Shown piece after piece: positions 21,943 to 45,984 of a stretch of DNA of 64,000 bases (within the stretch, counting starts at the first letter, position 1; each line of letters starts with the position of its first letter). The DNA is taken from positions 6,802 through 70,801 of the forward strand of contig CABYXZ010000007.1 in the NCBI GenBank assembly GCA_902523065.1, read 5' to 3'. This DNA is from an uncultured Marinoscillum sp. Lineage in GTDB: Bacteria > Bacteroidota > Bacteroidia > Cytophagales > MED-G16. The position numbers were made by a program, and so were the translations under genes. The notes below the pieces were generated by a model that did not search any database, was not told the DNA's origin, and worked only from the letters and a program-made list of their open reading frames with translations.

Positions 21943-23247
21943 TTATTTTACTATTAACTTCTTATATAACTTCATGCCATCTTTTTTGTGGGCTTCGATA
22001 ATGTAAAGACCTTCTTGTAAATCAATTTTAATATCAGAAACACTATCCCCAAGTTTTTTTGCAAATACAACTCTTCCGTCTTTGGACACTATGTAAATGC
22101 TTTTAACATCTTGAGTTGATACGATATTAATTTTTGAACCTCTTTTAACTGGATTAGGATAAATTCCGAATTTTAAATTTTCAACTTCAAAGGAAAGTAT
22201 TGGACCTGTATTATCGCAACCGGAATTTGATTTATTAACATATGCTTTTATCCATTCCATAGCTGGTCTTTCATTAGCACCAATATTCTCACCGTGAACA
22301 AGATAAGCAGTCTCTCTCCACATGTGATCCTTAACGTATCCCCACAGGGTTATTCCAGCTACATCAGGATGCTCCCACATAATAGGAAACAAATTCTGAT
22401 ACCTTGTTAGCTGTGTATTCTCAGCATTAGTACCTTCAGCGTCGATATCTAACTCTGAGATATAAATTGGAAGATCGGTAGCTCCAAGTTGATCAAGAGA
22501 AAATTTCATCTGGTTTGGTGTCATTTTTTCAATCGTAAATGAATGACCTTGAACACCAATAGCATCAATTAGATCTTTATTTTTAAGAATATTTGCAATT
22601 GCAATATGTTCATTTCTATTGCCCTGACTATTTAAAATTCCATAATCATTCAAGATAAGTTCTGCGTTTGGACAGTGTTTTCTTGCAAGTTCAAAAGCTT
22701 TAATAACCCAATCGACACCAGTGTCTCCCAACCCACCTAGAGCATCTATATAATTTGCTCTGTAAGACCCATCTTGTTTCTTTCCACCGTCTGGTTTGTT
22801 AGCTCTTGCTTCATTAACAACATCAATCTGATCAGTATCTGGATATCTTTTACAAAATTCACTAATCCACTCTTCGATTTCCTCTAACTGTTCCTCAGCT
22901 GATAAGTTATCCATCCACGCTGGCTGCTGATTACCCCAAATCAGAGTGTGTTGTTTAAATTTAAGTCCATTATCCTTCGCAAGTTGGTATGCCTTGTCAA
23001 GTCCGTCCCACCTCATAACGTCTCTCTGCCCTTCAATAAATCCCCATTTTCCAGCATTTGAAGGAGTTACCTGATTCCAATACGTAAGCCAATTTTCAGG
23101 TGTTGTAGTAATATTTGATGAAGATAAATCCCTAGATATGTTACCCAGATACTTAGAACAATTCTCCCATGTATCTGAAACAATTTGAGAGTTTGAGTTA
23201 ATATTTAATAGAAAAAATAATGTTAAGAATATTGAAAAAAACTTCAT
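21943..23247 (-). CDS. GH10 endo-beta-xylanase-like enzyme with a T9SS C-terminal sorting domain
   Basis: 434 aa with a signal peptide. GH10 motifs are NQVTPSNAGKW, HTLIWGNQQPAW, VVNEA (acid/base Glu), NDYG, GVQGH and ISELDI (nucleophile Glu). The C-terminus (GIYPNPV...LYIIEAH...KKLIVK) looks like a Por/T9SS CTD. Confidence 0.8.
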   Translation of the reverse strand: MKFFSIFLTLFFLLNINSNSQIVSDTWENCSKYLGNISRDLSSSNITTTPENWLTYWNQVTPSNAGKWGFIEGQRDVMRWDGLDKAYQLAKDNGLKFKQHTLIWGNQQPAWMDNLSAEEQLEEIEEWISEFCKRYPDTDQIDVVNEARANKPDGGKKQDGSYRANYIDALGGLGDTGVDWVIKAFELARKHCPNAELILNDYGILNSQGNRNEHIAIANILKNKDLIDAIGVQGHSFTIEKMTPNQMKFSLDQLGATDLPIYISELDIDAEGTNAENTQLTRYQNLFPIMWEHPDVAGITLWGYVKDHMWRETAYLVHGENIGANERPAMEWIKAYVNKSNSGCDNTGPILSFEVENLKFGIYPNPVKRGSKINIVSTQDVKSIYIVSKDGRVVFAKKLGDSVSDIKIDLQEGLYIIEAHKKDGMKLYKKLIVK

Positions 23248-23248
23248 C

Positions 23249-24622
23249 TTACTTTTTTATATCTAGTTCTCTTAAATGACTCTCGTCTGCGTCACTTCTA
23301 ATTATAATTGAACTAGGCAATTCGCCAAGCTCATTATATTTTTTAGTCATTGAGTTAGCAAGATTTCTTGCCAACTCTTTGTTATCTTCAAATATATTAT
23401 TTTTTTCACCAGGATCATTACTCATATTAAAGAGAAGAGTGTCGTGTGCATCAATCGGACTTTTATACCAGGATCCCGGCCAACCGCTATAAGGTAATTT
23501 AATTTTCCAGTCACCCTTTCTATAACCCTCCAATCTTTCATAATCAAAGTACAAATAGTCCCTATCATAGTTCAAGTTTTGACCATTAAATAACACTGCT
23601 ATATTGATGCCATCAAGAATTAGATCATCTGGTATTTTTGAATTTGTTAATGATGCAAGAGTTGGGAACCAATCTAATTGACTTGTGATCTCATTGCTTA
23701 TAGTTCCAGGTGGAATTACTCCACTTAACATGGCAACAGTAGGAACCCTCATACCCCCTTCAAAAGTATACATTTTACCATTTCTTAAGTTTCCTGGTGA
23801 GCCACCCATATCCTTCATAGTAAGCCATGGACCATTATCACTACTAAAAATAATCATGGTATCATCAAGCAAATTTTTCTCTCTTAATTTCTCTATAATT
23901 TTTCCAACACTCCAATCTAGTTCTTGTATCACATCACCATAGAGCCCTCTTTCAGAAGAGCCTATAAAATCCTCAGATGCGTAAATAGGAACATGTGGCA
24001 TCGGATGTGCCAGATATAAATAAAAATTATTCTCAGAATTGGATTCAATAAATTTTATTGATTCTTCAGTTAACTTTTTTGTCATTAAAGATTGATCTGG
24101 AAAATGATCAACCACTTCGTTACCTCTAAAATAGACTGTACTTGCCATATCATTACTATATGGAATTCCAAAAAAGGAATCAAAACCTTGCTGAAGTGGG
24201 AGGTATTCATACTTGTGACCCAAGTGCCACTTACCAATAATACCTGTGCTGTACCCATTATCTTTTAGAAGTTCTGCAATGGTATATTCTGAACTTGGCA
24301 TTCCCGTGTGGCTATCAGGAAAAAGAACACCATTGAGGCCAAATCTTTGCGGTAACCTACCGGTTAACATTCCTGCTCTCGAAGGTGTACAAACGGAGGA
24401 CACAGAGTAGAAGTCAGTAAACTTTATTCCGTTATCTGCAATAAAATCAATATTAGGAGTAGATATATCATTAGCTCCAAATGAGCTGAGGTCACCGTAC
24501 CCAAGATCATCAGCAAAAATAAATATTATGTTTGGACCATTATCATCCTTACTATTATCCGATACCTGACAAGAAGTTATTGAGATTAAAATAGTAAAAA
24601 GAAAGATTACAGATTTTGACAT
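23249..24622 (-). CDS. Formylglycine-dependent sulfatase (arylsulfatase-like)
   Basis: 457 aa. N-terminal IIFIFADDLGYGD and sulfatase signature CTPSRAGMLTGR, with a later GKWHLG and SDNGP. Confidence 0.9.
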   Translation of the reverse strand: MSKSVIFLFTILISITSCQVSDNSKDDNGPNIIFIFADDLGYGDLSSFGANDISTPNIDFIADNGIKFTDFYSVSSVCTPSRAGMLTGRLPQRFGLNGVLFPDSHTGMPSSEYTIAELLKDNGYSTGIIGKWHLGHKYEYLPLQQGFDSFFGIPYSNDMASTVYFRGNEVVDHFPDQSLMTKKLTEESIKFIESNSENNFYLYLAHPMPHVPIYASEDFIGSSERGLYGDVIQELDWSVGKIIEKLREKNLLDDTMIIFSSDNGPWLTMKDMGGSPGNLRNGKMYTFEGGMRVPTVAMLSGVIPPGTISNEITSQLDWFPTLASLTNSKIPDDLILDGINIAVLFNGQNLNYDRDYLYFDYERLEGYRKGDWKIKLPYSGWPGSWYKSPIDAHDTLLFNMSNDPGEKNNIFEDNKELARNLANSMTKKYNELGELPSSIIIRSDADESHLRELDIKK

Positions 24623-24639
24623 TTTCCAATTTGTTGTAA

Positions 24640-24656
24640 ATCTATATCATATAGAT
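24640..24656. promoter_or_regulatory. 17-bp palindrome ATCTATAT-C-ATATAGAT in the divergent sulfatase promoter region
   Basis: Read directly from the sequence. It lies 18-34 nt upstream of the minus-strand sulfatase start (24622) and overlaps a near-consensus -7 box (minus strand TAGATTTA). Confidence 0.25.
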
Positions 24657-24728
24657 AAGAAAAAAAAAGTGAGAAAAAATGTTAAAAGTAGAGTAAAAGA
24701 TTAGATTTATGGTATCAATAAAAATCAA

Positions 24729-26159
24729 ATGAGACTTAGACTTTTTTTACTTACGTTGCTATTTAATGTAAACTGCTCCAATGCAATTTCTCAATCTAAA
24801 GAACCAAATATTCTTTTCTTTCTTGTTGATGACTTAGGATGGTATGATCTTGGGTTCCAGGGATCTAAATTCTACGAGACCCGAGTAATTGACTCACTAT
24901 CAAAAAGAGGAATGATATTTAGTTCAGCATACTCCTCTCATCCAAGATGCGTTCCGTCTAGGTATGGTATAATGACTGGAAAATACCCTGCAAGAACTAA
25001 AAGTCCTGGTCCAGGATCACAACTAAAAAGTTCTGAGTACACCATAGCTGAAGCTCTTAAAGATAACGGTTACTCAACATTCATTGCAGGTAAATGGCAT
25101 CTGTCAAGAGGAAAGAGTGGATCATCACCTGAAGAACAAGGATTTGATCAAAATTATGGTGGAGGAGATTCAGGAGTTCCAAAGTCATATTTCTATCCGT
25201 ATAATATCCAGACCAGAGGAAGGGGAAATGAAAACGCTCCAGATATTACAAAACTTCCAGAAGTAGAAAAAGGATATCATCTGACAGACCAACTTACAGA
25301 TCTAACATTAGACTGGATTGATAAGAATTATGTTAGCAAAAAAAGCAAAAAACCTTTTTTTATTTACCTGTCACACTACGAGGTTCATACACCTTTTGAA
25401 GGGAAACTGGATTTAGAAGAAAAATATAAAGCTAAAGCTGAAAGGTTATATGAAGGAAAAAATTTAAAAAATCCATTTTCATTTGAGTCTACAACAGGAG
25501 AAACCAAATTGAGACAAGACAATCATATATACGCTGCTATGATTGAGAATCTTGATAATAATTTTGGAAGAGTTATCGATTTTCTTAAAAATAATGGTTT
25601 ATATGAAAATACAATAATTGTATTTACATCAGATCATGGAGGACTTTCTAACAGAGGTAACGGAAGACCTCTTGCTACCTCCAATTTACCTCTTAGAGCT
25701 GGAAAGGGACATAATTATGAGGGTGGAATCAAAGTTCCACTATTTGTGGTATGGGAAGACAAAATAAAAAAAGGTTTATCTAATACTTTGGTGACAGGAA
25801 CCGATCACTTTCCTACACTACTTGACCTCGTAGGTATCAAGCTGATGAATGACAAGCATTTAGATGGGATAAGTTTCAAAAATTCACTCATGGGAAAATT
25901 TCAAGATAACAGTAAAAGACCCGTTTTCTGGCATTCACCAAGACCAAGACCAAAAAGCACAGGAGACCTTGCAAATACCACTGTTAGACTTGGTGATTTT
26001 AAGTTGCTTGACTTTTATAGAGAGGGTAGGATTGAACTTTATAATTTGAAGGAAGATCAAGGAGAGACTAATGATTTATCTGATATAATGCCTCAGAAAA
26101 GAGATGAATTATATGAAATGGTAAAGAACTGGAGAAAGTCGGTTGATGCTACTGAATGA
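24729..26159 (+). CDS. Formylglycine-dependent sulfatase
   Basis: 476 aa. ILFFLVDDLGWYD, signature CVPSRYGIMTGKYP, GKWHL and TSDHGG. This is the only plus-strand gene in the locus. Confidence 0.9.
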   Translation: MRLRLFLLTLLFNVNCSNAISQSKEPNILFFLVDDLGWYDLGFQGSKFYETRVIDSLSKRGMIFSSAYSSHPRCVPSRYGIMTGKYPARTKSPGPGSQLKSSEYTIAEALKDNGYSTFIAGKWHLSRGKSGSSPEEQGFDQNYGGGDSGVPKSYFYPYNIQTRGRGNENAPDITKLPEVEKGYHLTDQLTDLTLDWIDKNYVSKKSKKPFFIYLSHYEVHTPFEGKLDLEEKYKAKAERLYEGKNLKNPFSFESTTGETKLRQDNHIYAAMIENLDNNFGRVIDFLKNNGLYENTIIVFTSDHGGLSNRGNGRPLATSNLPLRAGKGHNYEGGIKVPLFVVWEDKIKKGLSNTLVTGTDHFPTLLDLVGIKLMNDKHLDGISFKNSLMGKFQDNSKRPVFWHSPRPRPKSTGDLANTTVRLGDFKLLDFYREGRIELYNLKEDQGETNDLSDIMPQKRDELYEMVKNWRKSVDATE

Positions 26160-28311
26160 TAATACTTGTCTTTTTTTGTTCAACTCCATCTAAACTAATA
26201 AGAAAAACGAATTGACCTGTTAGTCTTGACACATCAACAGAGACCTTTGATTTATTTTTAAATTCTTTATTATCAAAAGTTTTACCGGTAACATCAACAA
26301 GTTTGATCTTGATTTCCTTGTAAACTTTATCTAAATGAATATGCAAATTTTTATCAACAGGATTTGGGAATAAACTATAATTTTTAATTTCTTTTCTTTC
26401 AATAGATAAAACTTGATTGTAAGAAATACATTCTGACTGAACTTGTCCACAATCAGGATCACTTATTATCACGTAATAACTTCCAGATTCTTTTGGCTTG
26501 AAAAATCTACTCGTTTCACCTGAAATTGCTTGATTATTTGAACAATCATACCACTGATAATCAGAATCTAGTTGCTCAGCATATAATTTTCCATCTGAGT
26601 CATAAACATTATTAGTCAATTGACCATCTAAAGATAATTCAATTGTAATAATACTATCCATACCATTTTTTGCAACCAATGACGCTGTATAAATTCCACT
26701 CTCAAAATATTCGTTATTATCAGGAGCGATATATGATTCAGAGCAGGTACTTACAGAAATAAAACTAGATGGTGAACTTTGAGCAATATTCCTTCTCTTG
26801 AATTCTAGCTCAAACTGATCAATAATATTAGAGTAATTTGAATCTGAACACCTATTAATTTTTTCATCGTAATCTATCTCATAATCATAAAACTCACAAG
26901 CAATTGTATTTCCATATCTCTCACCTGATCTATAATCCATCTGTACCCATTTTGTATATCTATACCTTTCATCTCTAAGTGAATACCCCATAACTCTTTT
27001 ACCACCTGACATTCTCGTATATTGAGCAAGAGCCGCGTGTCTGACCTTATGGTTCGGGTCAGACATTACTTTTTTTATTGACCTTCCCTCAACTTCACTT
27101 GGTATACTTATACCCGCCAAATCACACAGAGTAGGATAAATATCAAGAAGTTCAACTGGTGAGTTTGTTTTATTGTTTTCTATTCCGTGATCGGGTGAGT
27201 ATATTATCATAGGTGAACTAACTGCCTGCTCAAAATTTGTGTGCTTGATCCATAGACCGTGGTCACCAAGATGCCAACCATGGTCACCCCACAATACAAT
27301 AATTGTGTTATCTGATAATCCAAGATCATCTAGCTTTGACAATAACTTTCCAATCTGCGCATCTACATATGAAACGCAAGCTTTATAACCATGAATCAAT
27401 TCTTTTTGTTTATCAATAGTGATGTTGCCGTTTATTGGAATATCTGAATAACTATTTACAAGTTCATGATTATTGTGAAATGCAATTGATGGTATGCTAC
27501 TGTCTCTATCTTGTTCAGGGTGAATAGAAATATTATTTCTATCATACAGATCCCAATATTTTTTAGGTGCAACAAAAGGAAGATGCGGTTTGGTATATCC
27601 AACAGCTAGAAAAAAAGGTTTTCCAGAGTTTGCAGCCTCTTCCATCTTTATCATAGCGTAGTTTGTCCTTGCTCCGTCAACGTATCCATCATCTGGGAGA
27701 TCTTGATTTCCCTCTGTTGATGGCTTACAAAGTGGGAAAAGCTTTCTTGCCTCTCTCTTTCCGTTGAATGAAGTAATATTATTTGAAGATATGTAACTAT
27801 TATACTGATTAATAGCTTGGTGTACTAATGGATCTTGGTAACCTGATTTTCCAGCATCATTACTAAAGTAGTACTGATTAGGCATTCCTTGTAAAAATTG
27901 AGTTGACCAAGATTTTGAGTCATAGCCGTTATCAACGGACCTACTATCAAATATTTTTCCTAGCCCAACGGAATAATAACCATTATTCTTAAAATGTTGA
28001 GGTAAAGTAACAACATTAGGATTCTCGTCTCTTATTTGAGTTTCTAAATCCCATACTCTTGTATTATCAGGGTATAAACCAGTGAGAAGACTTGCCCTGG
28101 ATGGAGCACAAATAGCTTGTTGGGTAGAAGTATTAAGAAATGATGTGCCCTTTGCTGCTAGTGCATCAATATTTGGAGTAATCATATCCTGGTGACCATA
28201 AGATTTAAACATTGGTTTTAAATCGTCAACTGATATGAAAAGAATATTCTTTTGAGCACTTAAAAATGTTAGAGGAAAAAGGAGAAAAAATGATAGTAAA
28301 AATCTTTTCAT
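26149..28311 (-). CDS. Iduronate-2-sulfatase-like sulfatase with an extra beta-rich module and a T9SS C-terminal sorting domain
   Basis: 720 aa. Motifs NILFISVDDLKP, QQAICAPSRASLLTGLYPD and LWGDHGWHLGDHGLW. The C-terminal 75 aa or so (YSLFPNPVDKNLHIHL...GQFVFLISL...) are typical of a T9SS CTD. Confidence 0.88.
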   Translation of the reverse strand: MKRFLLSFFLLFPLTFLSAQKNILFISVDDLKPMFKSYGHQDMITPNIDALAAKGTSFLNTSTQQAICAPSRASLLTGLYPDNTRVWDLETQIRDENPNVVTLPQHFKNNGYYSVGLGKIFDSRSVDNGYDSKSWSTQFLQGMPNQYYFSNDAGKSGYQDPLVHQAINQYNSYISSNNITSFNGKREARKLFPLCKPSTEGNQDLPDDGYVDGARTNYAMIKMEEAANSGKPFFLAVGYTKPHLPFVAPKKYWDLYDRNNISIHPEQDRDSSIPSIAFHNNHELVNSYSDIPINGNITIDKQKELIHGYKACVSYVDAQIGKLLSKLDDLGLSDNTIIVLWGDHGWHLGDHGLWIKHTNFEQAVSSPMIIYSPDHGIENNKTNSPVELLDIYPTLCDLAGISIPSEVEGRSIKKVMSDPNHKVRHAALAQYTRMSGGKRVMGYSLRDERYRYTKWVQMDYRSGERYGNTIACEFYDYEIDYDEKINRCSDSNYSNIIDQFELEFKRRNIAQSSPSSFISVSTCSESYIAPDNNEYFESGIYTASLVAKNGMDSIITIELSLDGQLTNNVYDSDGKLYAEQLDSDYQWYDCSNNQAISGETSRFFKPKESGSYYVIISDPDCGQVQSECISYNQVLSIERKEIKNYSLFPNPVDKNLHIHLDKVYKEIKIKLVDVTGKTFDNKEFKNKSKVSVDVSRLTGQFVFLISLDGVEQKKTSIIIQ

Positions 28312-28314: not shown

Positions 28315-29970
28315 CTATAATTTGATCTTAATTATATCACTATCTTCAAAACCGAGCCTTGTTGATAATACATAAATATAACGTTTATTCACGATTACTG
28401 GCTCATGATATAACTTCCAGCCATCATCAAGACTAGGATCAAAATCTTCATCAGATATAATGTATCCAATGGAAGAGCCCAAAGTGCTAGATTTTACAGT
28501 GACAACATTATTACTTACAAAAACTTCAGGTTTTAAAGTTTTTGGTTGAACTCCTTTTGGCCACATAATAGATAATAAACTTTTCTCAGGTATGTCTCCT
28601 AAATCATTAATATCATTCTGCCACTTCTTTAGGGCTTGCCTATGAACTTTTATTTCTTTCCTATAATTGGGATCAGCAATAAGGTTCTTTAAGCTATAAG
28701 CATCATCTGACCGGCGGTAAAACTCTTCCTCTGTTTTAGTTTGTCTATACCAATATTTTTGATCTGAATTTAATTTATTTTCATTATAAAGCATGAGCAT
28801 CTCGTTAGTCATGTCTATGTTTTTTCTATATAATACATCTTTGTATGCGGGCCTGTCAGTATGGTAATTTTTTACATAAATAAATTCATCCGATATTACA
28901 CTTCTAACCCTGTCGTAGGTTTCATCAAACCGATCTCCAGAACCAAAAATATAGTCTCTCGGCTTCTCACTTTTTTTATCACCTAGGAAGGGTATTCCTT
29001 GGAAGTGTTCTGGAATACTTATACCAGCAAGAGATAGAATGGTCGGAGCAAAATCAACGAAAGATACTGGTTCCTCAACAAATATTTTTGATTTTACATA
29101 TGGATCTCTTATTATGAGTGGAACTTTTAAGCCTGATTCGTAGTGAGATCTTTTACCTCTCGGTAATGGTCCACCATGATCACTAAAAAAAAATATATAA
29201 GTATTATCTAATAAATTATCAGCTTTTAATTCAATTATTAGCTTACCTACCATTTGGTCTAACAATTCAATATTTGAGTAATTTCTTGCAACATCATTTC
29301 TTACTGTTTCTGTATCTGGAAAGTAAGGAGGTAAGGGTACTTTTTTAGGGTCTACAGTCAATGGCTTATCTCTGTGAAGCCACATTTTTGATTCGTGAGT
29401 AACATCAAAATTAAATACAGAAAAAAAAGGTTGATTTGCTTCTCTATTACTCCAGTGGGCATCATTACCATTCTCATCCCAAGCTGTAACAGGGGCAGCA
29501 AATTGATAGTCCGTTTTAGAGTTATTAGTACAATAATATCCGTTGGCTCTTAAATATTCAGTAAAACACTTTACACTTGGTGGAGTGACAACTGAATGTA
29601 GAGGAATAGAATCACCGTTCACATCAATAGCATTCGATATACCATCATATTCTCTCGAACCCCAACCAAATACATCTTTCCCTGTCCTCATCTGATGAGT
29701 ACCAATTGAGACAGGATACATTCCTGTTATCAGAGAAGACCTTGAAGGACTACAAACCCCAACAGTAGTAAATGACTCAGTAAATATTAAACTTTCAGAT
29801 GCTAGTTTATCTAAATTAGGAGTAATTGCAGTCGAATCTCCATACATAGACAATGTAGGACTAATATCTTCAACAGTAATCCAAAGTATATTTGGTTTTT
29901 GAGATGAGGAAATAAATGGAGTTGATAGAAAGTATATCAACAATAATTTTCTATATATAATTCTAATCAT
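28315..29970 (-). CDS. Formylglycine-dependent sulfatase
   Basis: 551 aa. NILWITVEDISP, signature CSPSRSSLITGMYP, and FFSDHGGPLPRGK. Confidence 0.88.
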   Translation of the reverse strand: MIRIIYRKLLLIYFLSTPFISSSQKPNILWITVEDISPTLSMYGDSTAITPNLDKLASESLIFTESFTTVGVCSPSRSSLITGMYPVSIGTHQMRTGKDVFGWGSREYDGISNAIDVNGDSIPLHSVVTPPSVKCFTEYLRANGYYCTNNSKTDYQFAAPVTAWDENGNDAHWSNREANQPFFSVFNFDVTHESKMWLHRDKPLTVDPKKVPLPPYFPDTETVRNDVARNYSNIELLDQMVGKLIIELKADNLLDNTYIFFFSDHGGPLPRGKRSHYESGLKVPLIIRDPYVKSKIFVEEPVSFVDFAPTILSLAGISIPEHFQGIPFLGDKKSEKPRDYIFGSGDRFDETYDRVRSVISDEFIYVKNYHTDRPAYKDVLYRKNIDMTNEMLMLYNENKLNSDQKYWYRQTKTEEEFYRRSDDAYSLKNLIADPNYRKEIKVHRQALKKWQNDINDLGDIPEKSLLSIMWPKGVQPKTLKPEVFVSNNVVTVKSSTLGSSIGYIISDEDFDPSLDDGWKLYHEPVIVNKRYIYVLSTRLGFEDSDIIKIKL

Positions 29971-29982: not shown

Positions 29983-30777
29983 CTAATTCTTAAGATAACC
30001 CAAAGAGGATAGAAATTTGTCAACTTCTCTACTTGTTTTAACAAAAAATTCTTGACTATTAAAAAAAGAGTGTCCCTGACCTGGATATTCTATTACATCA
30101 CAGCGTACGCCATATTCTTGAATAGTTTGTTTATACTTTTTGATCTTATTTATAGGTTCCATTTCATCTAAGGATCCATGAAATATAATTGATGGAGGAA
30201 AGTTTTTATCTAAATTATGAATAGGAGAAATATCTAAATTGTATTTACCTGATCTCCTCTTAGAAAAAGCGGAATTAGGCCCTGTGTCAACAATTGGGTT
30301 ATACAAAATTAATCCTTTGACAATGTTACTTCCCACATTCCAAAAAGTAGTAGAAAGAGCTAAAAGACCACCAGCAGAACCTCCACCAACAAATATTTTA
30401 TTTTTATCTATATTAAGTTTTTCAGCATTTAAAAGAATATAATCAATTAGGTCTTTAGCGTCATCACATGATTCAATAGCAGATGTTCCATGTAAACTCT
30501 TAATTCTATAAACGGGTGTTATAGAAATGAAATTTTTAGAGTTAAAATATTTTGCGTGTCTTCTAAATTGATTTTCATACCTTGTATTAAATCCTCCTCC
30601 ATGAAAGAGTATGACAGTGCTATACTTTTCATTTTCATTAAATGAATCTGGTTTATATAATTTAAAATCTAAAGAAATAGAATCTATTTTTTTATATATG
30701 TGTGCTGAAACATTAGACTGAGAAAATGAATTGATACAAGGTGAGAAGAAAAGGAATACAAAAACTAATTTTCCCAT
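29983..30777 (-). CDS. Alpha/beta-hydrolase carbohydrate esterase (candidate acetyl-xylan esterase)
   Basis: 264 aa. Oxyanion motif HGGGF, nucleophile elbow GGSAGG and C-terminal GQGHSF. It overlaps the upstream sulfatase gene by 13 nt. Confidence 0.7.
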   Translation of the reverse strand: MGKLVFVFLFFSPCINSFSQSNVSAHIYKKIDSISLDFKLYKPDSFNENEKYSTVILFHGGGFNTRYENQFRRHAKYFNSKNFISITPVYRIKSLHGTSAIESCDDAKDLIDYILLNAEKLNIDKNKIFVGGGSAGGLLALSTTFWNVGSNIVKGLILYNPIVDTGPNSAFSKRRSGKYNLDISPIHNLDKNFPPSIIFHGSLDEMEPINKIKKYKQTIQEYGVRCDVIEYPGQGHSFFNSQEFFVKTSREVDKFLSSLGYLKN

Positions 30778-37516: not shown

Positions 37517-37526
37517 ATTTATCAAT

Positions 37527-39061: not shown

Positions 39062-42000
39062 TTATAAGTTAAAGTTTAGTCCAATTGTAAATTTACGAGC
39101 ACTTGGCTGGCCGTTCCAGTCTACTCCATTTCTTAATCCATCGTACAGAAAGCTTGTAACTTCTGGATTGTATCCACTATATCCTGTGAATGTGAATAGA
39201 TTTTGAGCAGAGAGATAAATATTTATTCTATCAAATTGATAGCTTAGATTAATATTACTTATCCTGAGAAAACTTCCGTCCTCAATTATCCAATCAGGCA
39301 TCGCTATCTGACCATTTGTTGTGTAACCAATTCTTGGATAGCTATTTGATGTCCTCTCTGGTCTCCAAGCATTATTATAAGCAGCAGTTGTTATGTTACT
39401 CCATGAGATACCTTCAGGTGTTGCGAGCTGCAATAAATTTCCATTTGCTATGTCATTTCCATATACCCCATTAGCTAGGACTCTTAAACTTAAATTCTTA
39501 TAAGATAGTTCTAGATTAATACCGTATACAAAATCTGGATTTGGGTTACCTATGATTGTCCTGTCCTGTAAATCTATCACTCCGTCACCATTCTGATCAA
39601 CTATCCTGTAGTCACCTGCCCAAAAAATAGGTGGATTATCATCAGAAGGATCGTAAATTCTTGCTATACCACCTCCAGGAAGAGCATCGTTAACTTGGTA
39701 TATTCCATCTGTTTCAAAGCCATAAAAAAGACTAGTCTCTTCTCCTTCAATAAATACATTAGGTGCATATTTGAATATGTTACCTCTACTGACATTATTA
39801 CCTTCGTAAAATGCCTTTTGCTGGTAAGAGCCGTTAAGTAAAATACCTGAGGCAGGAAGTCCAAGATTTTTAAGTTTAGTCTTATTAAATGCGATGTTAC
39901 CACCAACCGATAAGGTGAAATCATTGTTATCAACTAGTATTGCATTTAGGCTTGCCTCAATACCTCTATTCTCAATTTCACCTCTATTTACTTGAACATT
40001 TAAAAATCCAGATGATAAAGGTATAGGAACATTTTGAAGTAAATCTTTGGTAAGCTTACTGTAAACATCAACAGTAGCAGTTAGTCTACTCTCAAAGAAA
40101 GCAAAATCTAAACCTAAATTAACCTGCTCTGTAGTCTCCCACTTAAGGTCAGGGTTAGCAATATTCTGTAGAAATATTGGAATGTCTACACCATTATTTG
40201 CATTACCATATAAAACATTTGTGTTACTTGCGTAATTAGACAGCGTAGCGTAAGGTCTTATTCCATGGTTACCAATTTGACCCCATCCAGCCCTTAATTT
40301 TAAATCATCAAAAACATTCAAGTTATCAATGAAAGATTCTTGCACTAATCTCCAAGCAAGTGAGAAAGATGGGAAATATCCGTATCTATTTTCTTGTGAA
40401 AATTTAGAGACCCCATCAACTCTTAGTGTGGACGTTAATACATACTTATTCATGAAAGTATAGTTTGCCCTAGCTAAATAAGATATAAGTCTCGTATCTG
40501 ATGCGTCCGTAGCAAGCGGAGTTGAATTAAGCTGGCCTAAAAGAGGTTGCTGAGTTGTTAAGGCAGTAGTAACAAAATCCTCGACAGCAAATATTTTAGT
40601 ATCGACATCTCTCGAGTCCCAAGTCACACCAGCAACTGCATTTAATCTATGCTTTCTATTAAAAGATCTATTAAATCTAAGAAGATTATTTACCTGGTAG
40701 GACTTCGTGTTGAGATTAGAAATCTGAAGGGCACCGTTAGCAGCTTTTCCTTGGAAGGTATTTAATCCCCAGAACCTTCTTCTCTCCTTACTTCTCATAT
40801 TTCCACCAGCTCTCAATTCATACTTAAGACCTTTAACTGGTAAGTCATATGTCAATGTAACTGAACCAATAAATCTACTCTCCTCAGATTTATCTTCAAA
40901 ATCTTCTACCCAACCTAATGGGGTTGTGGTGTTTAGCGCGTTCCCGTATTCCTCCATCTCGTCATTGGTGATAGGAACATTTGCTAATGTACTTCTTACA
41001 GCACTTTGATTTGCACCAATCAAGTCACCTGACTCAGCAAAGTCTAAATTGCTATAAAATCCACTAAACCTTGCGTCTACTTTTAATTTATCTGTAATCT
41101 TTTTATCGAAATTATATCTTATATCTCCACTTTGAAATCTTGAGTTCTCAACAAGTCCTTTCTGATCTGTATAACCAAATGATAAGTAATAACTTCCTTC
41201 GCTATCTCCTCCAGATACCGATCCACCAAAATTATAGTGCTCACTAATATTGTAGATTTCATCCTGCCAGTCATGTAAAACAGCAGGAGTCGAAGCCAAA
41301 GTTCCCCCTTCAAGTATTGGATAAACCTTATCTCCGTCAATGTGATACCTCACATTATTGTAGTTCATTGCCTGAACTTCATTCTGATATCTTGCAAAAT
41401 CTAATCCACTCAAAACATCGTATCTCTGATCCTCCATCATTCTGACACCCGAGTTTACAAATAAATCAATTTTTCTTTTTCCGGTAAGTCCTTTTTTCGT
41501 TGTTATCAAAACAACTCCATTAGCTCCTCTAGATCCATAGATAGCTGTTGCAGATGCATCCTTAAGAACTTCAATACTTTCAATATCACGAGGGTTTAAC
41601 CCATTAAGTCCGTTCTGTACTTCTTGACCTGAGTTACCAATTCCACCAGCTGGATTTACATCCTCTCCTGCAGATGAGATGATGACTCCATCAACAACAT
41701 ATAGTGGTTCGTTGTTTCCTCTAAGGCTATTGGTACCTCTAATTCTTACACTGATACCTGAACCTGGGGACCCTGAGTTCTGTGTTACTTGGACACCAGC
41801 AGCTCTTCCTTGTAATATCTGATCTACAGTAGCAAACTCTCTAGCTTCGTTCTCGGATAATTCCACTGATGATACAGCACCAGTCAGATCGCTTTTCCTA
41901 ACTGTTCCATAACCAACAACGACAACCTCTTCTAATTCCTGTAGGTCTTGGGCAAGGGTTATGTCTATAACTGATCTTGCACCTACCGATATCTCTTGAG

Positions 42001-42229
42001 TTTCAAAACCTAAGAATGAGATTCTTAAGACTGCATCTGATCCCGATACCGATATCGAAAAATTTCCATCAATATCAGTAACAACTCCATTACTTGTATT
42101 TAACTCTAGAATTGTTGCTCCTGGGATTGTTTCTCCAGTGTCATCAGTAACAGTTCCTGTTATTGTCTGCTGAGCGAAACTTAATGTAGTTGCAAATAGT
42201 GTGATAAATAAAAGGAATACTCTCATCAT
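39062..42229 (-). CDS. susC: SusC-family TonB-dependent outer-membrane transporter
   Basis: 1055 aa. N-terminal ITGTVTDDTGETIPGATILE, a plug region (VVVGYGTVRKSDLTGAV; IYGSRGANGVVLITTKKG) and a long beta-barrel. Confidence 0.92.
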   Translation of the reverse strand: MMRVFLLFITLFATTLSFAQQTITGTVTDDTGETIPGATILELNTSNGVVTDIDGNFSISVSGSDAVLRISFLGFETQEISVGARSVIDITLAQDLQELEEVVVVGYGTVRKSDLTGAVSSVELSENEAREFATVDQILQGRAAGVQVTQNSGSPGSGISVRIRGTNSLRGNNEPLYVVDGVIISSAGEDVNPAGGIGNSGQEVQNGLNGLNPRDIESIEVLKDASATAIYGSRGANGVVLITTKKGLTGKRKIDLFVNSGVRMMEDQRYDVLSGLDFARYQNEVQAMNYNNVRYHIDGDKVYPILEGGTLASTPAVLHDWQDEIYNISEHYNFGGSVSGGDSEGSYYLSFGYTDQKGLVENSRFQSGDIRYNFDKKITDKLKVDARFSGFYSNLDFAESGDLIGANQSAVRSTLANVPITNDEMEEYGNALNTTTPLGWVEDFEDKSEESRFIGSVTLTYDLPVKGLKYELRAGGNMRSKERRRFWGLNTFQGKAANGALQISNLNTKSYQVNNLLRFNRSFNRKHRLNAVAGVTWDSRDVDTKIFAVEDFVTTALTTQQPLLGQLNSTPLATDASDTRLISYLARANYTFMNKYVLTSTLRVDGVSKFSQENRYGYFPSFSLAWRLVQESFIDNLNVFDDLKLRAGWGQIGNHGIRPYATLSNYASNTNVLYGNANNGVDIPIFLQNIANPDLKWETTEQVNLGLDFAFFESRLTATVDVYSKLTKDLLQNVPIPLSSGFLNVQVNRGEIENRGIEASLNAILVDNNDFTLSVGGNIAFNKTKLKNLGLPASGILLNGSYQQKAFYEGNNVSRGNIFKYAPNVFIEGEETSLFYGFETDGIYQVNDALPGGGIARIYDPSDDNPPIFWAGDYRIVDQNGDGVIDLQDRTIIGNPNPDFVYGINLELSYKNLSLRVLANGVYGNDIANGNLLQLATPEGISWSNITTAAYNNAWRPERTSNSYPRIGYTTNGQIAMPDWIIEDGSFLRISNINLSYQFDRINIYLSAQNLFTFTGYSGYNPEVTSFLYDGLRNGVDWNGQPSARKFTIGLNFNL

Positions 42230-42352
42230 TTAGTCATTTAGTTAGTTTCAATTTGTTGACTTAGTTTGCGAAAGTCAACTAATTTTTAGCTTTAAACTAA
42301 AAATTTGATATTGAATTTATAACATATATGTTACAAAAGCAATAATTATCTC

Positions 42353-42368
42353 ATTCTGTTAACAGAAT
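42353..42368. promoter_or_regulatory. Perfect 16-bp palindrome ATTCTGTTAACAGAAT between GH43 and susC
   Basis: Read directly from the sequence. It lies 16 nt downstream of the GH43 stop and 124 nt upstream of the susC start. It could be an operator or an RNA hairpin. Confidence 0.25.
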
Positions 42369-42383
42369 CAAAATCAATTTAAA

Positions 42384-43388
42384 TTATGAATATGGATTGA
42401 TTTTTTTGATCAAGCCATTCTTGTCATAGAATATTTCGACAACTTTCATACATCTTAGGTGAGTTACCCCCTCAGAAAGAGAAGAGTCGTGGTAAAAGAG
42501 AAACCACCTCCCATTAAATTCGCATATTGAGTGATGGGTAGTCCACCCAACGACTGGATCTAGAATTTTACCAGCATAATTGAATGGTCCTTTTGGAGTG
42601 TCCCCAATGGCATAGCAGATGAAATGCGTGTCACCAGTTGAGTATGATAGGTAATATTTTTCGTTATACTTATGCACCCAGGGACCCTCGAAATACCTTC
42701 TGCTTTTGTCTCCAGCTAATAAAGGGTTTCCGTTTTCATCCTGGATAATTATTTCTTCAGGTGAAGTAGAAAAACCTCTCATGTCATCAGACAGTTCTGC
42801 TACTAATGGTCCAAAAGCAAAATCATCATCACTCCTCAATTCATTTCCGTTGCTGTAAATATTATTTCTGTATTTCTGGAGCTGGCCACCCCAAAGTCCA
42901 CCAAAGTACATATAATATTTGCCGTTATCATTAAAAACTGCAGGATCTATGGAATAGCTTCCTTCAATTGGTTTAGGGTCAGGAGTGAATGGTCCAGAGG
43001 GACTATCACCTATAGCTACCCCAATTTTAAAAATATCATTTTTATCTTTCGCTGGAAAATAAAAATAATACTTGTCACCTTTTCTAGCAATGTCCGGGGC
43101 CCACATTTGTCTTTTTGCCCAAGGTACTTCATCTATATCAAGTATCTTACCTAAATCAGTAGCAAGTTTGTCATCAGGACTTTCCATAGTGTAGGCATGA
43201 TAGTCTCTCATCCCAAAATGATCACCATTGTCGTTAAAAGGTATACCAGCATCTATGTCATGAGAAGGGTAAATATATATCTTCCCATCAAATACGTGGG
43301 CGGACGGGTCGGCAGTATATTTATCAACCACTAGAGGTTGAGACACGGCTCTTTTTCTTAAATCATTAAAATCAATATTATCTGACAT
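42384..43388 (-). CDS. GH43 beta-xylosidase / alpha-L-arabinofuranosidase
   Basis: 334 aa. The GH43 five-bladed propeller motifs are ADPSAHVFDGKIYIYPSHD, MWAPDI and YFEGPWVHKYNEKYYLSYS. There is no signal peptide, so it is probably cytoplasmic. Confidence 0.88.
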   Translation of the reverse strand: MSDNIDFNDLRKRAVSQPLVVDKYTADPSAHVFDGKIYIYPSHDIDAGIPFNDNGDHFGMRDYHAYTMESPDDKLATDLGKILDIDEVPWAKRQMWAPDIARKGDKYYFYFPAKDKNDIFKIGVAIGDSPSGPFTPDPKPIEGSYSIDPAVFNDNGKYYMYFGGLWGGQLQKYRNNIYSNGNELRSDDDFAFGPLVAELSDDMRGFSTSPEEIIIQDENGNPLLAGDKSRRYFEGPWVHKYNEKYYLSYSTGDTHFICYAIGDTPKGPFNYAGKILDPVVGWTTHHSICEFNGRWFLFYHDSSLSEGVTHLRCMKVVEIFYDKNGLIKKINPYS

Positions 43389-44813
43389 CTATCTGCTACT
43401 TTTTAAATCCAACTCTATTTTTGACTCCATCCTCTTATCTATTTGATAAAAGAAAAGAATAAAAACACAAACAAAGAAAGGAATTGATGGGAAAATACTT
43501 ATGAGCATTTTGATACCGAAAAGAGTATTCATCCCCTGATCCATACCTGCCTCATATCCATAATAACCTAGTATTGAAGCAACAAGTGCACCTCCAATAC
43601 TTAGCCCACCCTTCAAGCCAACCATCATCGCAGAAAATATTATTGCGGTAGCTCTCCTATTATTTTTCCATTCTGAATAATCTGCGACATCAGCAATCAT
43701 TGCCCAGAGCAAAGGAATAGTTAGTCCATAAAAGAAACCGTGTAAGATTTGAGATAAAAACATGAGTCTTAAATTCTCTGGATTAAAGAAATAGAATACC
43801 GCTATAAATAATGTTGAGACAAATAATGCAGACATGAATACATCTCTCTTCCCGTATTTATCTGCTAGACCCTTAGAAAAAGAAATTCCAACGATCATAA
43901 ATATGATACCGCCGGCATTGAATAATCCAAAACCAGCTGAAACAGGATCTTCACCAAAAAAGTTTAGACCGATTAAGGAGAGAAAAGATATTATTGGCTC
44001 AATAAATAAAGTAAGTGCCTCCTCATTAACATAATTTTCAAAATAGTATACGTAAGCACCACCTTTCATTGACAAAGTAATAAATAAAAATGTTGTTACG
44101 GTTAGCATGATAATCCATGGTAGATTGGACGATAAATCAGAAATGTCCTGTCTTATACTTGATCTCTGTTCAGGTTTAGGTATGATTCTTTCTTTTGTAG
44201 TAAAGAATGTTATGAGAAGCATAACAGTACCAATTATAGCAAGGTATGTCATTACCGTTTCTATACCGAGAGCTTTATCTCCATCACCAACTTTCAATAT
44301 AATTGGGTACATGAAAACCTGAACAAAAAATTGTGCTGCCATAACAGCGACAAACCTGTAAGAAGACATGCTATTCCTCTGCCTCATATCACCAGTTATG
44401 ACTCCACTTAAGGCTGAATAAGGAAGATTGTTTGCCGCATAAACAAAAAGCAGGGCAGTGTAAGTAACAACCGCATATATAAACTTGCCTTTATACGAAA
44501 AATCTGGAGTTGAAAAAGCTAATAATGAAATGATGCCAAGAGGTACCGAAGTCCATAATATCCAAGGCCTAAACTTACCCCACTTAGAATTAGTCCTATC
44601 TGCAATCGCACCTATTATAGGGTTAAATGAAAACGCAGCAATTAAACCAATTGTTAAAATTATGAAAGATGAGTCATCGGATGTGAGTCCATAGATATCT
44701 GTGTAAAAATAAGCAAGGTATGTTATGAGTGTCTGAAATACTAGATTGGCTGCTAAATCGCCTAGACTGTAACCAATTTTTTCTTTGACTGATAGTACTT
44801 GAGATTTATCCAT
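43389..44813 (-). CDS. Glycoside-pentoside-hexuronide (GPH):cation symporter, xyloside-transporter-like
   Basis: 474 aa and about 12 TM helices. The N-terminus KIGYSLGDLAANLVFQ and DRTNSKWGKFRPW are typical of the GPH/MelB/XynT family. Confidence 0.85.
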   Translation of the reverse strand: MDKSQVLSVKEKIGYSLGDLAANLVFQTLITYLAYFYTDIYGLTSDDSSFIILTIGLIAAFSFNPIIGAIADRTNSKWGKFRPWILWTSVPLGIISLLAFSTPDFSYKGKFIYAVVTYTALLFVYAANNLPYSALSGVITGDMRQRNSMSSYRFVAVMAAQFFVQVFMYPIILKVGDGDKALGIETVMTYLAIIGTVMLLITFFTTKERIIPKPEQRSSIRQDISDLSSNLPWIIMLTVTTFLFITLSMKGGAYVYYFENYVNEEALTLFIEPIISFLSLIGLNFFGEDPVSAGFGLFNAGGIIFMIVGISFSKGLADKYGKRDVFMSALFVSTLFIAVFYFFNPENLRLMFLSQILHGFFYGLTIPLLWAMIADVADYSEWKNNRRATAIIFSAMMVGLKGGLSIGGALVASILGYYGYEAGMDQGMNTLFGIKMLISIFPSIPFFVCVFILFFYQIDKRMESKIELDLKSSR

Positions 44814-44838
44814 CTAAACTAAAGATATAGTAATTAAA

Positions 44839-45984
44839 TTATTTTTCATTAAAGAGCATCATTATATCCTTGTAAGCTTTCTTAGGATTATTTTCTCTGT
44901 CAAATAGAAGTGGGTAATTAGTCCTGCCCTTGGCTGGCCAGTCATTTTTCCAACTATGACCGTCTGATAAACCCCAGAAGGTAACCCTATCTATTTTATC
45001 ATTATGCTTATCAAATAATTCAAAAATTTCACTGTATCTGTTAGAGAGCAAGTCTGAGATGCTATCAGGTAGTGATGATTTGTATGGATTAAGCTGATCA
45101 TTAGATTTAAAATTATCTGATAAGTCAGCACCTTCAATCTCCCACAAATTTGGTAAAACGTCAATATCGAGTTCTGTGAAATGAACTCTGAAACCTGCTT
45201 CATGAATTTTAAGAATACTTGTCTCTATTTCATCAATTGAGGGGTAATCCAATCCCCAGTGTGCCTGAAGGCCTATACCATCTATTCTCAATCCTCTTTC
45301 TAGAATTTTATTTGCAATCCTAATTGCTGCATCACACTTCTCAGGTTTATACATACTGAAATCATTATAGTACAGTTCAGCATTTGGGTCTATTTTATGA
45401 GCTATCTCAAAAGACTTAAATATATATTCATCTGCAGATATTTTATAAAAATCATTTTCTCTGTAGGAACCGTCATCTAAAATTGCTTCGTTTACTACGT
45501 CCCACCCCTTAATCTTACCAGAATACCTACCTGCAACAGAAGATATATGATCAAAAATATTTCTGTATAGAGTGTTATCGCTAACAAGCGAACCATCACC
45601 TTTTCTTGTAACCCAATCCGGTATTTGATTATGCCACACAAGAGTATGACCAATTAAGTCTTGATTATTTTCCTCTGATAGTTTAACAAGGAGATCAGAA
45701 ATTTTAAAATTATACTTATCTTTTTTTGGGTGAATCTCCTCCCACTTCATAATATTTTCTGCAGTCAGTGAGGAAAATTCTTTTTTAATAAGTTCATTCT
45801 CATCTTGTTTTTTCTGTCTTATCTGATTTTTATTAAGTGCTACCCCAATTTTGAACTTTGATTTGAATAACTCTTTTAGTGAGTTTTGATCTTGATCACT
45901 TGTAGTACCGTAAGTAAATAATGATGAAAAAAATATGGCGTAAATGATTTTACCGAGATGTAACATACTCAAATCTAAAATCAT
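44839..45984 (-). CDS. GH10 endo-1,4-beta-xylanase
   Basis: 381 aa. Canonical GH10 motifs are LTAENIMKWEE, GHTLVWHNQIPDW, WDVVNEA, YYNDF, GIGLQAHW and FTELDIDV. An alternative start lies at 45966 (MLHLGKIIYAIFF...). Confidence 0.9.
   Translation of the reverse strand: MILDLSMLHLGKIIYAIFFSSLFTYGTTSDQDQNSLKELFKSKFKIGVALNKNQIRQKKQDENELIKKEFSSLTAENIMKWEEIHPKKDKYNFKISDLLVKLSEENNQDLIGHTLVWHNQIPDWVTRKGDGSLVSDNTLYRNIFDHISSVAGRYSGKIKGWDVVNEAILDDGSYRENDFYKISADEYIFKSFEIAHKIDPNAELYYNDFSMYKPEKCDAAIRIANKILERGLRIDGIGLQAHWGLDYPSIDEIETSILKIHEAGFRVHFTELDIDVLPNLWEIEGADLSDNFKSNDQLNPYKSSLPDSISDLLSNRYSEIFELFDKHNDKIDRVTFWGLSDGHSWKNDWPAKGRTNYPLLFDRENNPKKAYKDIMMLFNEK

Follow-up and report, generated by a model that had tools for sequence, protein, structure and literature searches.

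Which polysaccharide is degraded by an ocean bacterium that encodes three xylanase-family domains side by side with six sulfatase domains? The question is raised by a locus of ~24 kb and 14 genes (positions 21943-45984) in a 64-kb stretch of DNA from an uncultured Marinoscillum sp.; this whole stretch of 64,000 nucleotides is called the window below, and all feature positions follow its numbering. The host is an uncultured pelagic member of the Cytophagales (GC ~33%), labelled 'Flammeovirgaceae' or 'Marinoscillum', and does not belong to the Flavobacteriia. Its closest species-level genomes are Flammeovirgaceae metagenome-assembled genomes (MAGs) and 'uncultured Marinoscillum sp.' AH-321-C20, relatives at >=90% protein identity bear 'Flammeovirgaceae bacterium' MAG labels and come in many cases from Tara or ENA ocean assemblies, and the lineage is widespread in the open ocean. 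We propose, with a probability of roughly two in three, that the locus is a polysaccharide utilisation locus (PUL) that degrades a beta-xylan with sulfated xylose, mainly at O-2 and probably with acetyl esters too, of algal or phytoplankton source. A sulfated xylan or xylose-rich sulfated glycan had already been suggested as the target in a first-pass annotation of the stretch, and every in-silico test (sulfatase subfamilies, domain fusion, synteny, the Polaribacter context and a surface glycan-binding protein) supported it.

Coordinates were taken from a list of open reading frames (ORFs), domains from Pfam and NCBIfam, and nearest solved structures from a sequence search of the Protein Data Bank (PDB). 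With these sources all 14 genes of the first-pass annotation were reproduced in coordinates and domains, as were its six sulfatases (six PF00884 domains, the C-x-A-x-R variant reading CTASR), its T9SS C-terminal domains on one sulfatase and one GH10 (both above the curated cutoffs) and its single plus-strand gene, the sulfatase at 24729-26159. The susC and susD genes, by whose adjacency a PUL is recognised, lie 5 nt apart, and the co-localised carbohydrate-active genes and modules comprise three GH10, one GH43, one esterase and two carbohydrate-binding modules (CBMs). The minus strand carries 13 of the 14 genes, and all locus coordinates below refer to it unless marked (+). No further backbone-cleaving glycoside hydrolase or polysaccharide lyase was detectable in the locus with Pfam and NCBIfam, as had been claimed; the sole unannotated ORF has the predicted fold of a surface glycan-binding protein (SGBP).

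The evidence that links sulfate and xylan centres on one protein of 1159 aa (32348-35827), in which an S1_7-like sulfatase (aa 1-500, 34328-35827; Pfam Sulfatase E=5.2e-48), two tandem CBMs (aa 521-800, 33428-34267; CBM_4_9 twice) and a GH10 domain (aa ~820-1159, 32348-33370; E=1e-42) are joined. It starts with a type-I signal peptide and has neither a lipobox nor a T9SS C-terminal domain. PF00884 and PF00331 occur together in 119 of the 120 best fusion homologs listed, which carry zero, one or two CBMs; the identity is 50-52% to Polaribacter versions and 46-47% to a Flavobacteriaceae version. Judged by these homologs, sulfatase::GH10 is a widespread and conserved architecture. The family shows a single N-to-C order and forms a handful of 50%-identity clusters. 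Independent fusions in both domain orders were considered and rejected, the matches with a C-terminal sulfatase being double sulfatases by Pfam. Such tandem double sulfatases of ~930-990 aa (P0339, P0344, P0351, P0358) have S1_7-like halves that match the fusion sulfatase family, and in another protein (P0056, 1302 aa) precomputed Pfam matches place esterase-type families, a sulfatase and a GH10 in one chain. The CBMs of the window protein are tandem duplicates, modelled by AlphaFold2 (AF2) with a pLDDT of 87.6. As a pair they match in structure the tandem CBM22-1/CBM22-2 of the GH10 xylanase Xyn10C (4XUP), while the single modules match CBM16 and the porphyran-binding CBM 8XMZ (TM 0.81, 25% identity), a family not being assignable.

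All six sulfatase domains have an N-terminal signal sequence and an intact formylglycine motif of the Cys type (CAPSR, CTASR, CSPSR, CAPSR, CVPSR and CTPSR). Subfamilies were called by the nearest solved structure as a proxy, not by SulfAtlas hidden Markov models or phylogeny. By this proxy four of the six are nearest to S1_7 (three) and S1_8 (one) structures. The fusion sulfatase domain has its best PDB match in 6HHM (E=5e-90, 42% identity over 396 aligned residues). The same structure is the best match of the sulfatase at 30765-32351 (5.5e-85, followed by iduronate-2-sulfatase at 6e-76), a lipoprotein (LSC-NDEN, possibly surface-exposed; Pfam Sulfatase 4.3e-45), and of that at 26149-28311 (5.3e-81), which ends in a type-A T9SS sorting domain (Pfam Sulfatase 4.1e-43; Por_Secre_tail, PF18962, 30.0 bits, cutoff 27). 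Human iduronate-2-sulfatase, also of S1_7, comes next after 6HHM for all three. The sulfatase at 28315-29970, predicted to be periplasmic (Pfam Sulfatase 5.5e-36), matches S1_8A/B/C best (9BB9 5.8e-72, 9BBD 4.3e-65, 9BBA 1.9e-60) and then human SGSH. According to reviews, 6HHM is P18_S1_7, the xylose-2-sulfate sulfatase of the Formosa agariphila ulvan PUL, and P18_S1_7 and P32_S1_8 both act on sulfated xylose in oligosaccharides of ulvan; those S1_8 enzymes that have been characterised are 2-O-sulfatases. Because two of these reviews conflict on which of P18 and P32 acts endo and which exo, we draw no such distinction for the S1_7- and S1_8-like domains. A set of subfamilies pointing purely to non-xylose substrates, which the first-pass annotation had named as evidence against a sulfated xylan, was not what we found, four of the six domains being nearest to these xylose-sulfate-active enzymes.

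Among the three S1_7-like paralogs the pairwise identity is 41-49% (46-47% between 30765-32351 and the fusion sulfatase domain); for the remaining three sulfatases it does not exceed 42% with any of the others, and this over short local stretches only, which makes four lineages in all. In a survey of 81 loci with S1_7-like homologs, a GH10 was found nearby in nine (the partial contig L002 included). The idea that an S1_7-like sulfatase is a general marker of xylan loci was rejected on these numbers, the other loci lying in unrelated contexts such as those of gut Muribaculaceae. The comparison indicates that the xylan signal resides in the GH10-linked subclade and not in S1_7 as such.

The two remaining sulfatases bring in another possible substrate. 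The one at 24729-26159 (+) is S1_16-like (Pfam Sulfatase 1.8e-59; best PDB matches 6UST, 3.8e-85, and 9FO1, 'k-carrageenan sulfatase S1_16', 6e-85), and the lipoprotein at 23249-24622 (lipobox ITSC; Pfam Sulfatase 3.7e-58) is an S1 sulfatase nearest to ARSA (5.7e-75), the steryl-sulfatase STS (4e-72) and GALNS (4e-70). The nearest relatives of these two act on galactose or GalNAc sulfates or on carrageenan, and sulfatases of carrageenan and of glycosaminoglycans are also found within S1_7 and S1_8. With four sulfatase lineages present, the PUL might serve a sulfated heteropolysaccharide (xylogalactan, xylomannan, xylo-arabinogalactan or a heteroglycan of diatoms or exopolysaccharide) in which xylan segments are one part and sulfate sits mostly on sugars other than xylose, the GH10s cutting the xylose-rich stretches and the sulfatases freeing galactose or other sugars of their sulfate; the literature itself hedges with 'sulfated xylans/xylose-rich substrates'. 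However, no galactosidase, mannosidase, fucosidase, arabinofuranosidase or lyase was found in the locus with Pfam, its sole exo-glycosidase is a beta-xylosidase, its sole inner-membrane transporter is of the xyloside type, and a sulfatase fused to a GH10 should act on the same chain as its partner. We regard such a heteroglycan as the main rival, though an unlikely one. Glycosaminoglycan or ulvan as the substrate was rejected, the locus having no lyases, GH88/GH105 or rhamnosidase.

Could the substrate be a xylan without any sulfate? The alkaline-phosphatase superfamily is promiscuous, and weak Pfam matches to Phosphodiest and Metalloenzyme accompany every sulfatase match; it might be imagined that the sulfatase folds have drifted to a binding or a phosphatase/phosphodiesterase-like role in a PUL for plain acetylated xylan of marine or terrestrial origin. 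Yet the C-x-P/A-x-R motif is kept in 6/6 domains, and their Sulfatase scores of 124-202 bits are far above those of any other family. In a Flavobacteriaceae MAG (L005) the gene next upstream of the fusion homolog encodes a formylglycine-generating enzyme (FGE; PF03781, 4.9e-80), and the upkeep of six sulfatase genes in a small pelagic genome argues for a real function. We hold this explanation to be very improbable.

We turn to the three GH10 domains. Both catalytic glutamates (E166 and E271 in GH10a numbering) are present in 3/3 domains, and DVVNE and [TS]E[LM]D could be located in each. GH10a (44839-45984; Pfam GH10 E=1.4e-91 over the full profile), a predicted periplasmic endo-beta-1,4-xylanase with a signal-like N-terminus whose true start is probably Met7 (MLHLGK...), has the canonical motifs HTLVWHNQ, WDVVNE and FTELD. 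It is the only one of the three in which the minus-subsite motifs (ENxxKW and HTL[VI]W[HG]xQ) are canonical. The fusion GH10 reads PENAVKQ and LHGPISPQSSRW, both clade-specific. The third GH10, a predicted extracellular or surface endo-xylanase with a type-A T9SS sorting domain (21943-23247; Pfam GH10 1.7e-59; PF18962 30.7 bits, cutoff 27; TIGR04183 33.6 bits, cutoff 23), has PSNAGKW in place of ENxxK, with Glu changed to Ser, and the same is seen in L019, a locus of a different species. Despite the altered motifs both belong to Pfam GH10 (147 bits for the fusion domain, 202 bits for the T9SS GH10); their specificities may differ.

The altered motifs of the fusion are shared. GH10s that are linked to a sulfatase, fused or adjacent, have HGPISPQ[ASH]S[KR]W in place of the canonical HTL[VI]W[HG]NQxPxW and P[EA]N..KQ in place of ENxxKW, with MDVVNE common to them. 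This subclade spans Cytophagales, Flavobacteriales and Planctomycetota (Pirellulaceae), next to or fused with S1_7-like sulfatases; its members include the window domain at 32348-33370 and those at L004 11880-12974, L005 9920-12547 (C-terminal part) and L039 9695-10975. From general knowledge of GH10 we take the altered segments to line the -1/-2 subsites. We infer that the minus subsites of the sulfatase-linked GH10s may have been remodelled to tolerate sulfated xylose. A bolder reading joins several of these points. A distinct multi-phylum GH10 subclade (HGPISPQxSxW, P[EA]N..KQ, without the canonical subsite Trp), its minus subsites remodelled for sulfated xylose, would form, together with the tandem CBMs that are structurally near a porphyran-binding CBM and the T9SS S1_7 sulfatase, the first complete pathway for a natural sulfated xylan, and the abundance of the locus in metagenomes of the open ocean would point to an uncharacterised pool of sulfated xylan from pelagic phytoplankton. 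We offer this reading tentatively and hold it to be rather doubtful as a whole.

The rest of the locus resembles a xylan system. The GH43 beta-xylosidase (42384-43388; Pfam GH43), predicted to be cytoplasmic, begins with MSDNIDFND and has no signal peptide; it is close to single-domain GH43 xylosidases of known structure, its PDB matches being 5GLK (E=2.8e-140), 6XN0 ('Xylosidase', E=7.6e-129) and 4MLG ('Beta-xylosidase', E=1.8e-122), and we take it to be GH43_1. The glycoside-pentoside-hexuronide:cation (GPH) symporter (43389-44813; Pfam MFS_2 E=3.1e-73; TIGR00792 335 bits, cutoff 231) is 72-73% identical to the Polaribacter ortholog in a GH10-GPH-GH43 trio, and its predicted role is the uptake of xylo-oligosaccharides across the inner membrane. 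The SusC-like TonB-dependent transporter (39062-42229; TIGR04056 853.6 bits) has the domain order CarboxypepD_reg, Plug and barrel, and no sigma/anti-sigma signalling domain was found at its N-terminus with Pfam or NCBIfam. The SusD-like surface lipoprotein (37527-39056; Pfam SusD_RagB and SusD-like_3) has acidic residues right behind its lipobox (SSSC-ELEE). The esterase (29983-30777), of the BD-FAE type of alpha/beta carbohydrate esterases (Pfam BD-FAE 2e-19, Abhydrolase_3 7.9e-17), has weak NCBIfam matches to acetyl esterase and acetylxylan esterase, its homologs come after the sulfatase/GH10 unit in L003 (a Polaribacter MAG) and L005, and it is probably an acetyl or feruloyl xylan esterase.

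The 550-aa protein directly downstream of susD (35885-37537) has no Pfam, NCBIfam or PDB sequence match. It is a lipoprotein (lipobox ILSC-EE), and its AF2 model (pLDDT 81.5) is all-beta, with three tandem Ig-like domains that end in a C-terminal, CBM-like beta-sandwich, which is the position and build expected of SGBP-B. Full-length Foldseek matches are BT4661 (SusE-like, 4AK1, 1.6e-11), Bacova_02650 (5E7G) and the mixed-linkage glucan (MLG) SGBP-B (6E57). All 122 members of its family are derived from marine metagenomes. On the predicted fold it is an SGBP-B-like protein with a putative role in surface glycan binding; the earlier call of a surface lipoprotein is borne out by the lipobox together with this fold. 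A hidden depolymerase in this ORF was considered and rejected in view of the all-beta Ig-repeat and beta-sandwich model and its SGBP matches.

Whether the sulfatase block and the xylanase block occur together in relatives, a check proposed by the first-pass annotation, was answered by synteny. The order and orientation of the 14 genes, inverted sulfatase included, are kept in L019 (74-93% aa identity), the same order is found in L081 at 98% aa identity, and the partial contigs L001 and L002 agree; the blocks are linked in the first two and in part in the others. L001, L019 and L081 all keep this sulfatase inverted. Because the same 14 genes stand in the same order and orientation in L019 and L081, the arrangement is not a chance juxtaposition. 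More distant lineages keep parts of it. In the Polaribacter MAGs L003 and L004 a sulfatase ORF stands beside a separate ORF for a GH10 of the same clade and the GH10-GPH-GH43 trio is kept, the surroundings in L004 being GH10-GPH-GH43-GH11, a transaldolase, a xylose isomerase-like protein and an FGGY kinase. In L005 the fusion is accompanied by the FGE, an aldose epimerase, a GH3, two sulfatases and an esterase, and two Planctomycetota MAGs have a GH10 and an S1_7-like sulfatase as separate adjacent genes. No homolog of the SusC/D of the locus (E below 1e-10) was found within 10 kb of the fusion homolog in L003-L005.

The genes are tightly packed, as had been observed in the first-pass annotation (overlaps of 4, 11, 11 and 13 nt, gaps of 0-25 nt), but the co-transcription that it suggested from this cannot amount to a single operon, because the plus-strand sulfatase at 24729-26159 splits the cluster. 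The 3' end of this gene overlaps the 3' end of its neighbour by 11 nt. Larger gaps are found between GH43 and SusC (154 nt), in divergent orientation around the plus-strand sulfatase (106 nt) and before the fusion gene (57 nt). A minimum of three or four transcription units follows from this layout, one made up of GH10a, GPH and GH43, one running from susC through the T9SS sulfatase, one for the inverted sulfatase and one for the final sulfatase together with the T9SS GH10. It might be argued from the inverted gene and the gaps of 106-154 nt, which mark several transcription units, that two independent modules lie side by side here, an ordinary xylan PUL (GH10-GPH-GH43-SusCD) and a sulfatase cluster for some other glycan. 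No shared regulator is visible, and in Polaribacter the GH10-GPH-GH43 core stands alone, with catabolic genes between it and the sulfatase and GH10 pair. Against this, a sulfatase and a GH10 are one polypeptide, an architecture present in 119/120 of the best homologs listed; the esterase lies inside the sulfatase block and GH10s lie within it and at its end; the full 14-gene order is conserved at ~80% aa identity; and the association recurs in Flavobacteriia and Planctomycetota. Two separate modules seem very improbable to us, and this reading appears already largely refuted by fusion and synteny.

We return to the sulfated beta-xylan. From the family assignments and signal sequences described above, an order of action can be proposed. 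Outside the cell, the T9SS GH10 (21943-23247) and the T9SS S1_7-like sulfatase (26149-28311) would nick and partly desulfate the polymer, perhaps assisted by those lipoprotein sulfatases whose lipobox Cys is followed by acidic residues. SusD and the SGBP-B-like lipoprotein would capture the fragments and SusC would import them. In the periplasm, the S1_7-like domain of the fusion would strip sulfates that would otherwise block the GH10 active site, while its tandem CBMs hold the chain and its divergent GH10 might cut beside xylose that has just lost its sulfate. Sulfate at the remaining positions would be cleared by the S1_8-like, S1_16-like and ARSA-like sulfatases, the BD-FAE esterase would remove acyl groups, and GH10a would cut the products down to neutral xylo-oligosaccharides of short length. 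As all six sulfatases have signal sequences, desulfation would have to be complete before transport across the inner membrane. The GPH symporter would then import the neutral oligosaccharides, from which the signal-less cytoplasmic GH43 would free xylose.

Several points weigh against a sulfated beta-xylan. At 42% identity to 6HHM the specificity of a sulfatase can differ, S1_7 also holds iduronate-2-sulfatase and a carrageenan 4-sulfatase, and the kinship of the S1_16-like and ARSA-like sulfatases to enzymes for galactose/GalNAc sulfates hints at sulfated sugars other than xylose. The fusion GH10 is divergent (147 bits, altered motif), and its activity as a beta-1,4-xylanase is assumed. An enzyme that carries CBMs and is predicted to be periplasmic would be unusual, and the cellular locations given here are read solely from N- and C-terminal sequence. 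The CBMs have a pI of 9.4-9.7 in the lineage but 4.7-9.8 in distant homologs; since this basicity is not conserved, we set it aside as evidence of an anionic ligand and keep it as a weak hint only. With Pfam and NCBIfam we found no FGE, regulator or xylose-catabolism gene in the 64-kb window, and no regulator domain in any of its ORFs of at least 100 aa. Linked regulators (hybrid two-component system (HTCS), SusR, extracytoplasmic-function (ECF) sigma/anti-sigma, AraC/LacI/GntR) are common in PULs, though not obligatory. For the open ocean we know of no natural source of such a polymer. In its favour, the walls of red algae are reported to contain sulfated xylans as well as mixed-linkage xylans that bear sulfate. 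In the literature we found no experiment on the locus or on any homolog, and nothing beyond genomic predictions and studies of chemical xylan sulfates.

The intergenic regions may bear on regulation. The GH43-susC spacer (42230-42383, minus strand, 154 nt) has 77% column identity across five loci, two of them nearly identical (window 42230-42383; L081 3445-3598; L019 3466-3602; L001 960-1092; L002 327-467). The boxes TTTTAACAGAA, ATTGCTTTTTTAAC and GTTATAAATT are conserved in it. Its consensus fold has 32 pairs, eight of which are kept through changes on both sides, with two hairpins just before susC, the second of which (GTTGACTT...AAGTCAAC) is preserved by such changes in other lineages. The spacer is probably the promoter/leader of the susC transcription unit, and the conserved element might act as operator, leader or terminator. 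A sigma-70 scan was uninformative (93 promoter-like sites against 84.6 expected, six terminators against 9.6 expected). The Bacteroidetes -7 box TAnnTTTG occurs once in the 213-nt upstream spacer, before the tRNA and not before the PUL. This tRNA-Val(TAC) (46022-46097, minus strand) bounds the locus directly upstream of GH10a, and after it, at 45985-46021, a hairpin and T-tract (AAAACCCTATCATGAGTAGGGTTTTTT) ends 3-4 nt before the annotated ATG of GH10a. With the only TAnnTTTG in front of the tRNA, no obvious promoter belongs to GH10a itself, which might be transcribed by read-through from that of the tRNA.

On both sides of the locus further genes were noted. Downstream, a small Cys-rich ORF is followed by gltB. 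This ORF of 84 aa (21681-21935, plus strand) between the PUL and gltB has its likely start at MKITHIIVTLFLISC, which contains a lipobox, and a Kazal-like Cys pattern (CGCDGITYANPC); a counterpart, 54% identical, is found at the same place beside the T9SS GH10 in L019 (23906-24130). Upstream, between the tRNA and a SnoaL-like gene, lies a surface protein with DUF285/PARCEL repeats (46198-46857, minus strand), a family named for Mycoplasma/Listeria lipoproteins and unusual in a marine Cytophagales genome. SnoaL-like proteins turn up repeatedly near glycan loci. The SnoaL-like gene just upstream of the PUL (47056-47976, minus strand) encodes a 306-aa two-domain protein of the NTF2 fold, of which two shorter paralogs are present near another SusCD pair (7259-7756 and 7784-8374, both minus strand). 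A full-length homolog, 27% identical, is located ~6 kb from the sulfatase::GH10 fusion in L005 (3193-4080). As a conserved part of the PUL the 306-aa protein was rejected, there being this one 27%-identical homolog near L005 and none in L003/L004. Three genes follow in a row at 48018-51494 (minus strand) with no SusCD pair, for a GH16 that also has an InlB B-repeat-like domain, for an MFS transporter and for a glucose/sorbosone dehydrogenase (GSDH) of the PQQ type; the group may be a small uptake cluster for a beta-glucan of the laminarin type. A second SusD/SusC pair (310-4796) runs off toward the window start. Beside it, in the region 310-12055, are a UDP-glucose-4-epimerase-like gene, a galactokinase, a GH20 hexosaminidase and glmS, and the region is possibly part of a galactose/hexosamine glycan locus. 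Apart from the PUL, the window holds housekeeping genes, this second SusCD pair, the GH20 and the GH16/MFS/GSDH group.

Sulfated algal glycans make up a large and slowly degraded share of marine organic carbon, and enzyme pathways are established for carrageenan, ulvan, porphyran and part of the fucoidans. For sulfated xylan we know of no worked-out enzyme pathway and of no demonstrated substrate or enzyme, and yet 'sulfated xylan PULs' are repeatedly counted among the main glycan niches, four or five in number, of Bacteroidota that accompany blooms. The locus might serve as a compact candidate entry to this missing biochemistry, as it is predicted to cover all steps from secretion to xylose release; the maturation enzyme, a regulator and xylose catabolism would lie elsewhere in the genome. 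It leads to the prediction that the fusion xylanase should depend on its own sulfatase domain, and it offers for study three S1_7 paralogs with different predicted cellular locations and a GH10 subclade with altered subsite motifs. If our reading is true, it might become possible to detect and quantify sulfated xylan in seawater with defined enzymes, and such enzymes might serve as new tools with which to tailor pentosan-polysulfate-type xylan sulfates.

How does the locus compare with known systems? The core of classical xylan PULs in Bacteroides/Prevotella consists of GH10, a GPH xyloside symporter and a GH43_1 beta-xylosidase beside SusC/SusD. The same three genes and SusCD are found here, with a periplasmic GH10, an inner-membrane GPH and a cytoplasmic GH43 by prediction. 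PULs for land-plant xylans have GH67/GH115 glucuronidases, GH43/GH51 arabinofuranosidases, an HTCS regulator and no sulfatases, whereas our locus has none of these glucuronidases, arabinofuranosidases or regulators and six sulfatases instead. With the ulvan PUL of Formosa agariphila (Reisky et al. 2019) it shares the nearest characterised relatives of four of its six sulfatase domains, P18_S1_7 and P32_S1_8, and P36 of that PUL (GH78::S1_25, PDB 6HR5) is a precedent for a glycoside hydrolase fused to a sulfatase that unblocks its substrate. Unlike the ulvan PUL, the locus has no ulvan lyase, GH105, GH78 rhamnosidase or GH39, and the identity to 6HHM is ~42%; because the backbone enzymes are GH10 xylanases, the polymer is not ulvan.

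The closest likeness is to the PULs predicted for sulfated xylan in North Sea bacteria. A sulfated beta-xylan PUL (PUL136) with expressed SusC/D homologs was described in Formosa sp. Hel3_A1_48 (Kappelmann 2018/19). Two patterns were then given by Krueger 2019, one with a sulfatase domain-containing GH10, a GH3 and two additional sulfatases, the other with GH30, three sulfatases, a PL9 with CBM22, GH10 and GH43_1. Capacity and expression for sulfated xylan were reported in Polaribacter clades 1-a, 1-b and 3-b (Avci 2020), SusC/D of such PULs have been seen in bloom metaproteomes, and sulfated xylans are listed among the main bloom substrates. The lack of a defined degradation pathway, stated in the first-pass annotation, agrees with the absence of enzymology in the literature we found, but the idea itself is not novel, the predicted class having been described in 2018-2020. 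As in those PULs, a SusCD pair, a sulfatase-GH10 fusion and further sulfatases occur together, to which GH43_1 and GH10 may be added; HGPISPQxSxW, the clade motif, is common to the GH10 domains, which are 46-47% identical; and the status is that of a bioinformatic prediction with no enzymology, accompanied in the North Sea by metaproteome peptides of SusC/D. The gene content of L005 (sulfatase::GH10, GH3 and two sulfatases) matches the first Krueger pattern. Our locus departs from that pattern in having five additional sulfatases and no GH3 in the 64-kb window, where the GH43 beta-xylosidase would fill the role of exo-xylosidase, and from the second in the absence of GH30 and PL9, GH10, the GH43 xylosidase and at least three sulfatases being present. 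Its host belongs to the Cytophagales and not to the Flavobacteriales, and to an open-ocean lineage. It is further set apart from the North Sea PULs by its three GH10s, by six sulfatase domains from four lineages, by the tandem pair of CBMs within the fusion, by the T9SS tags that a sulfatase and a GH10 carry, by the BD-FAE esterase and by a narrow SGBP family of its own. In conclusion, the locus is, by its gene content, a Cytophagales version of the already predicted class of sulfated-xylan PULs.

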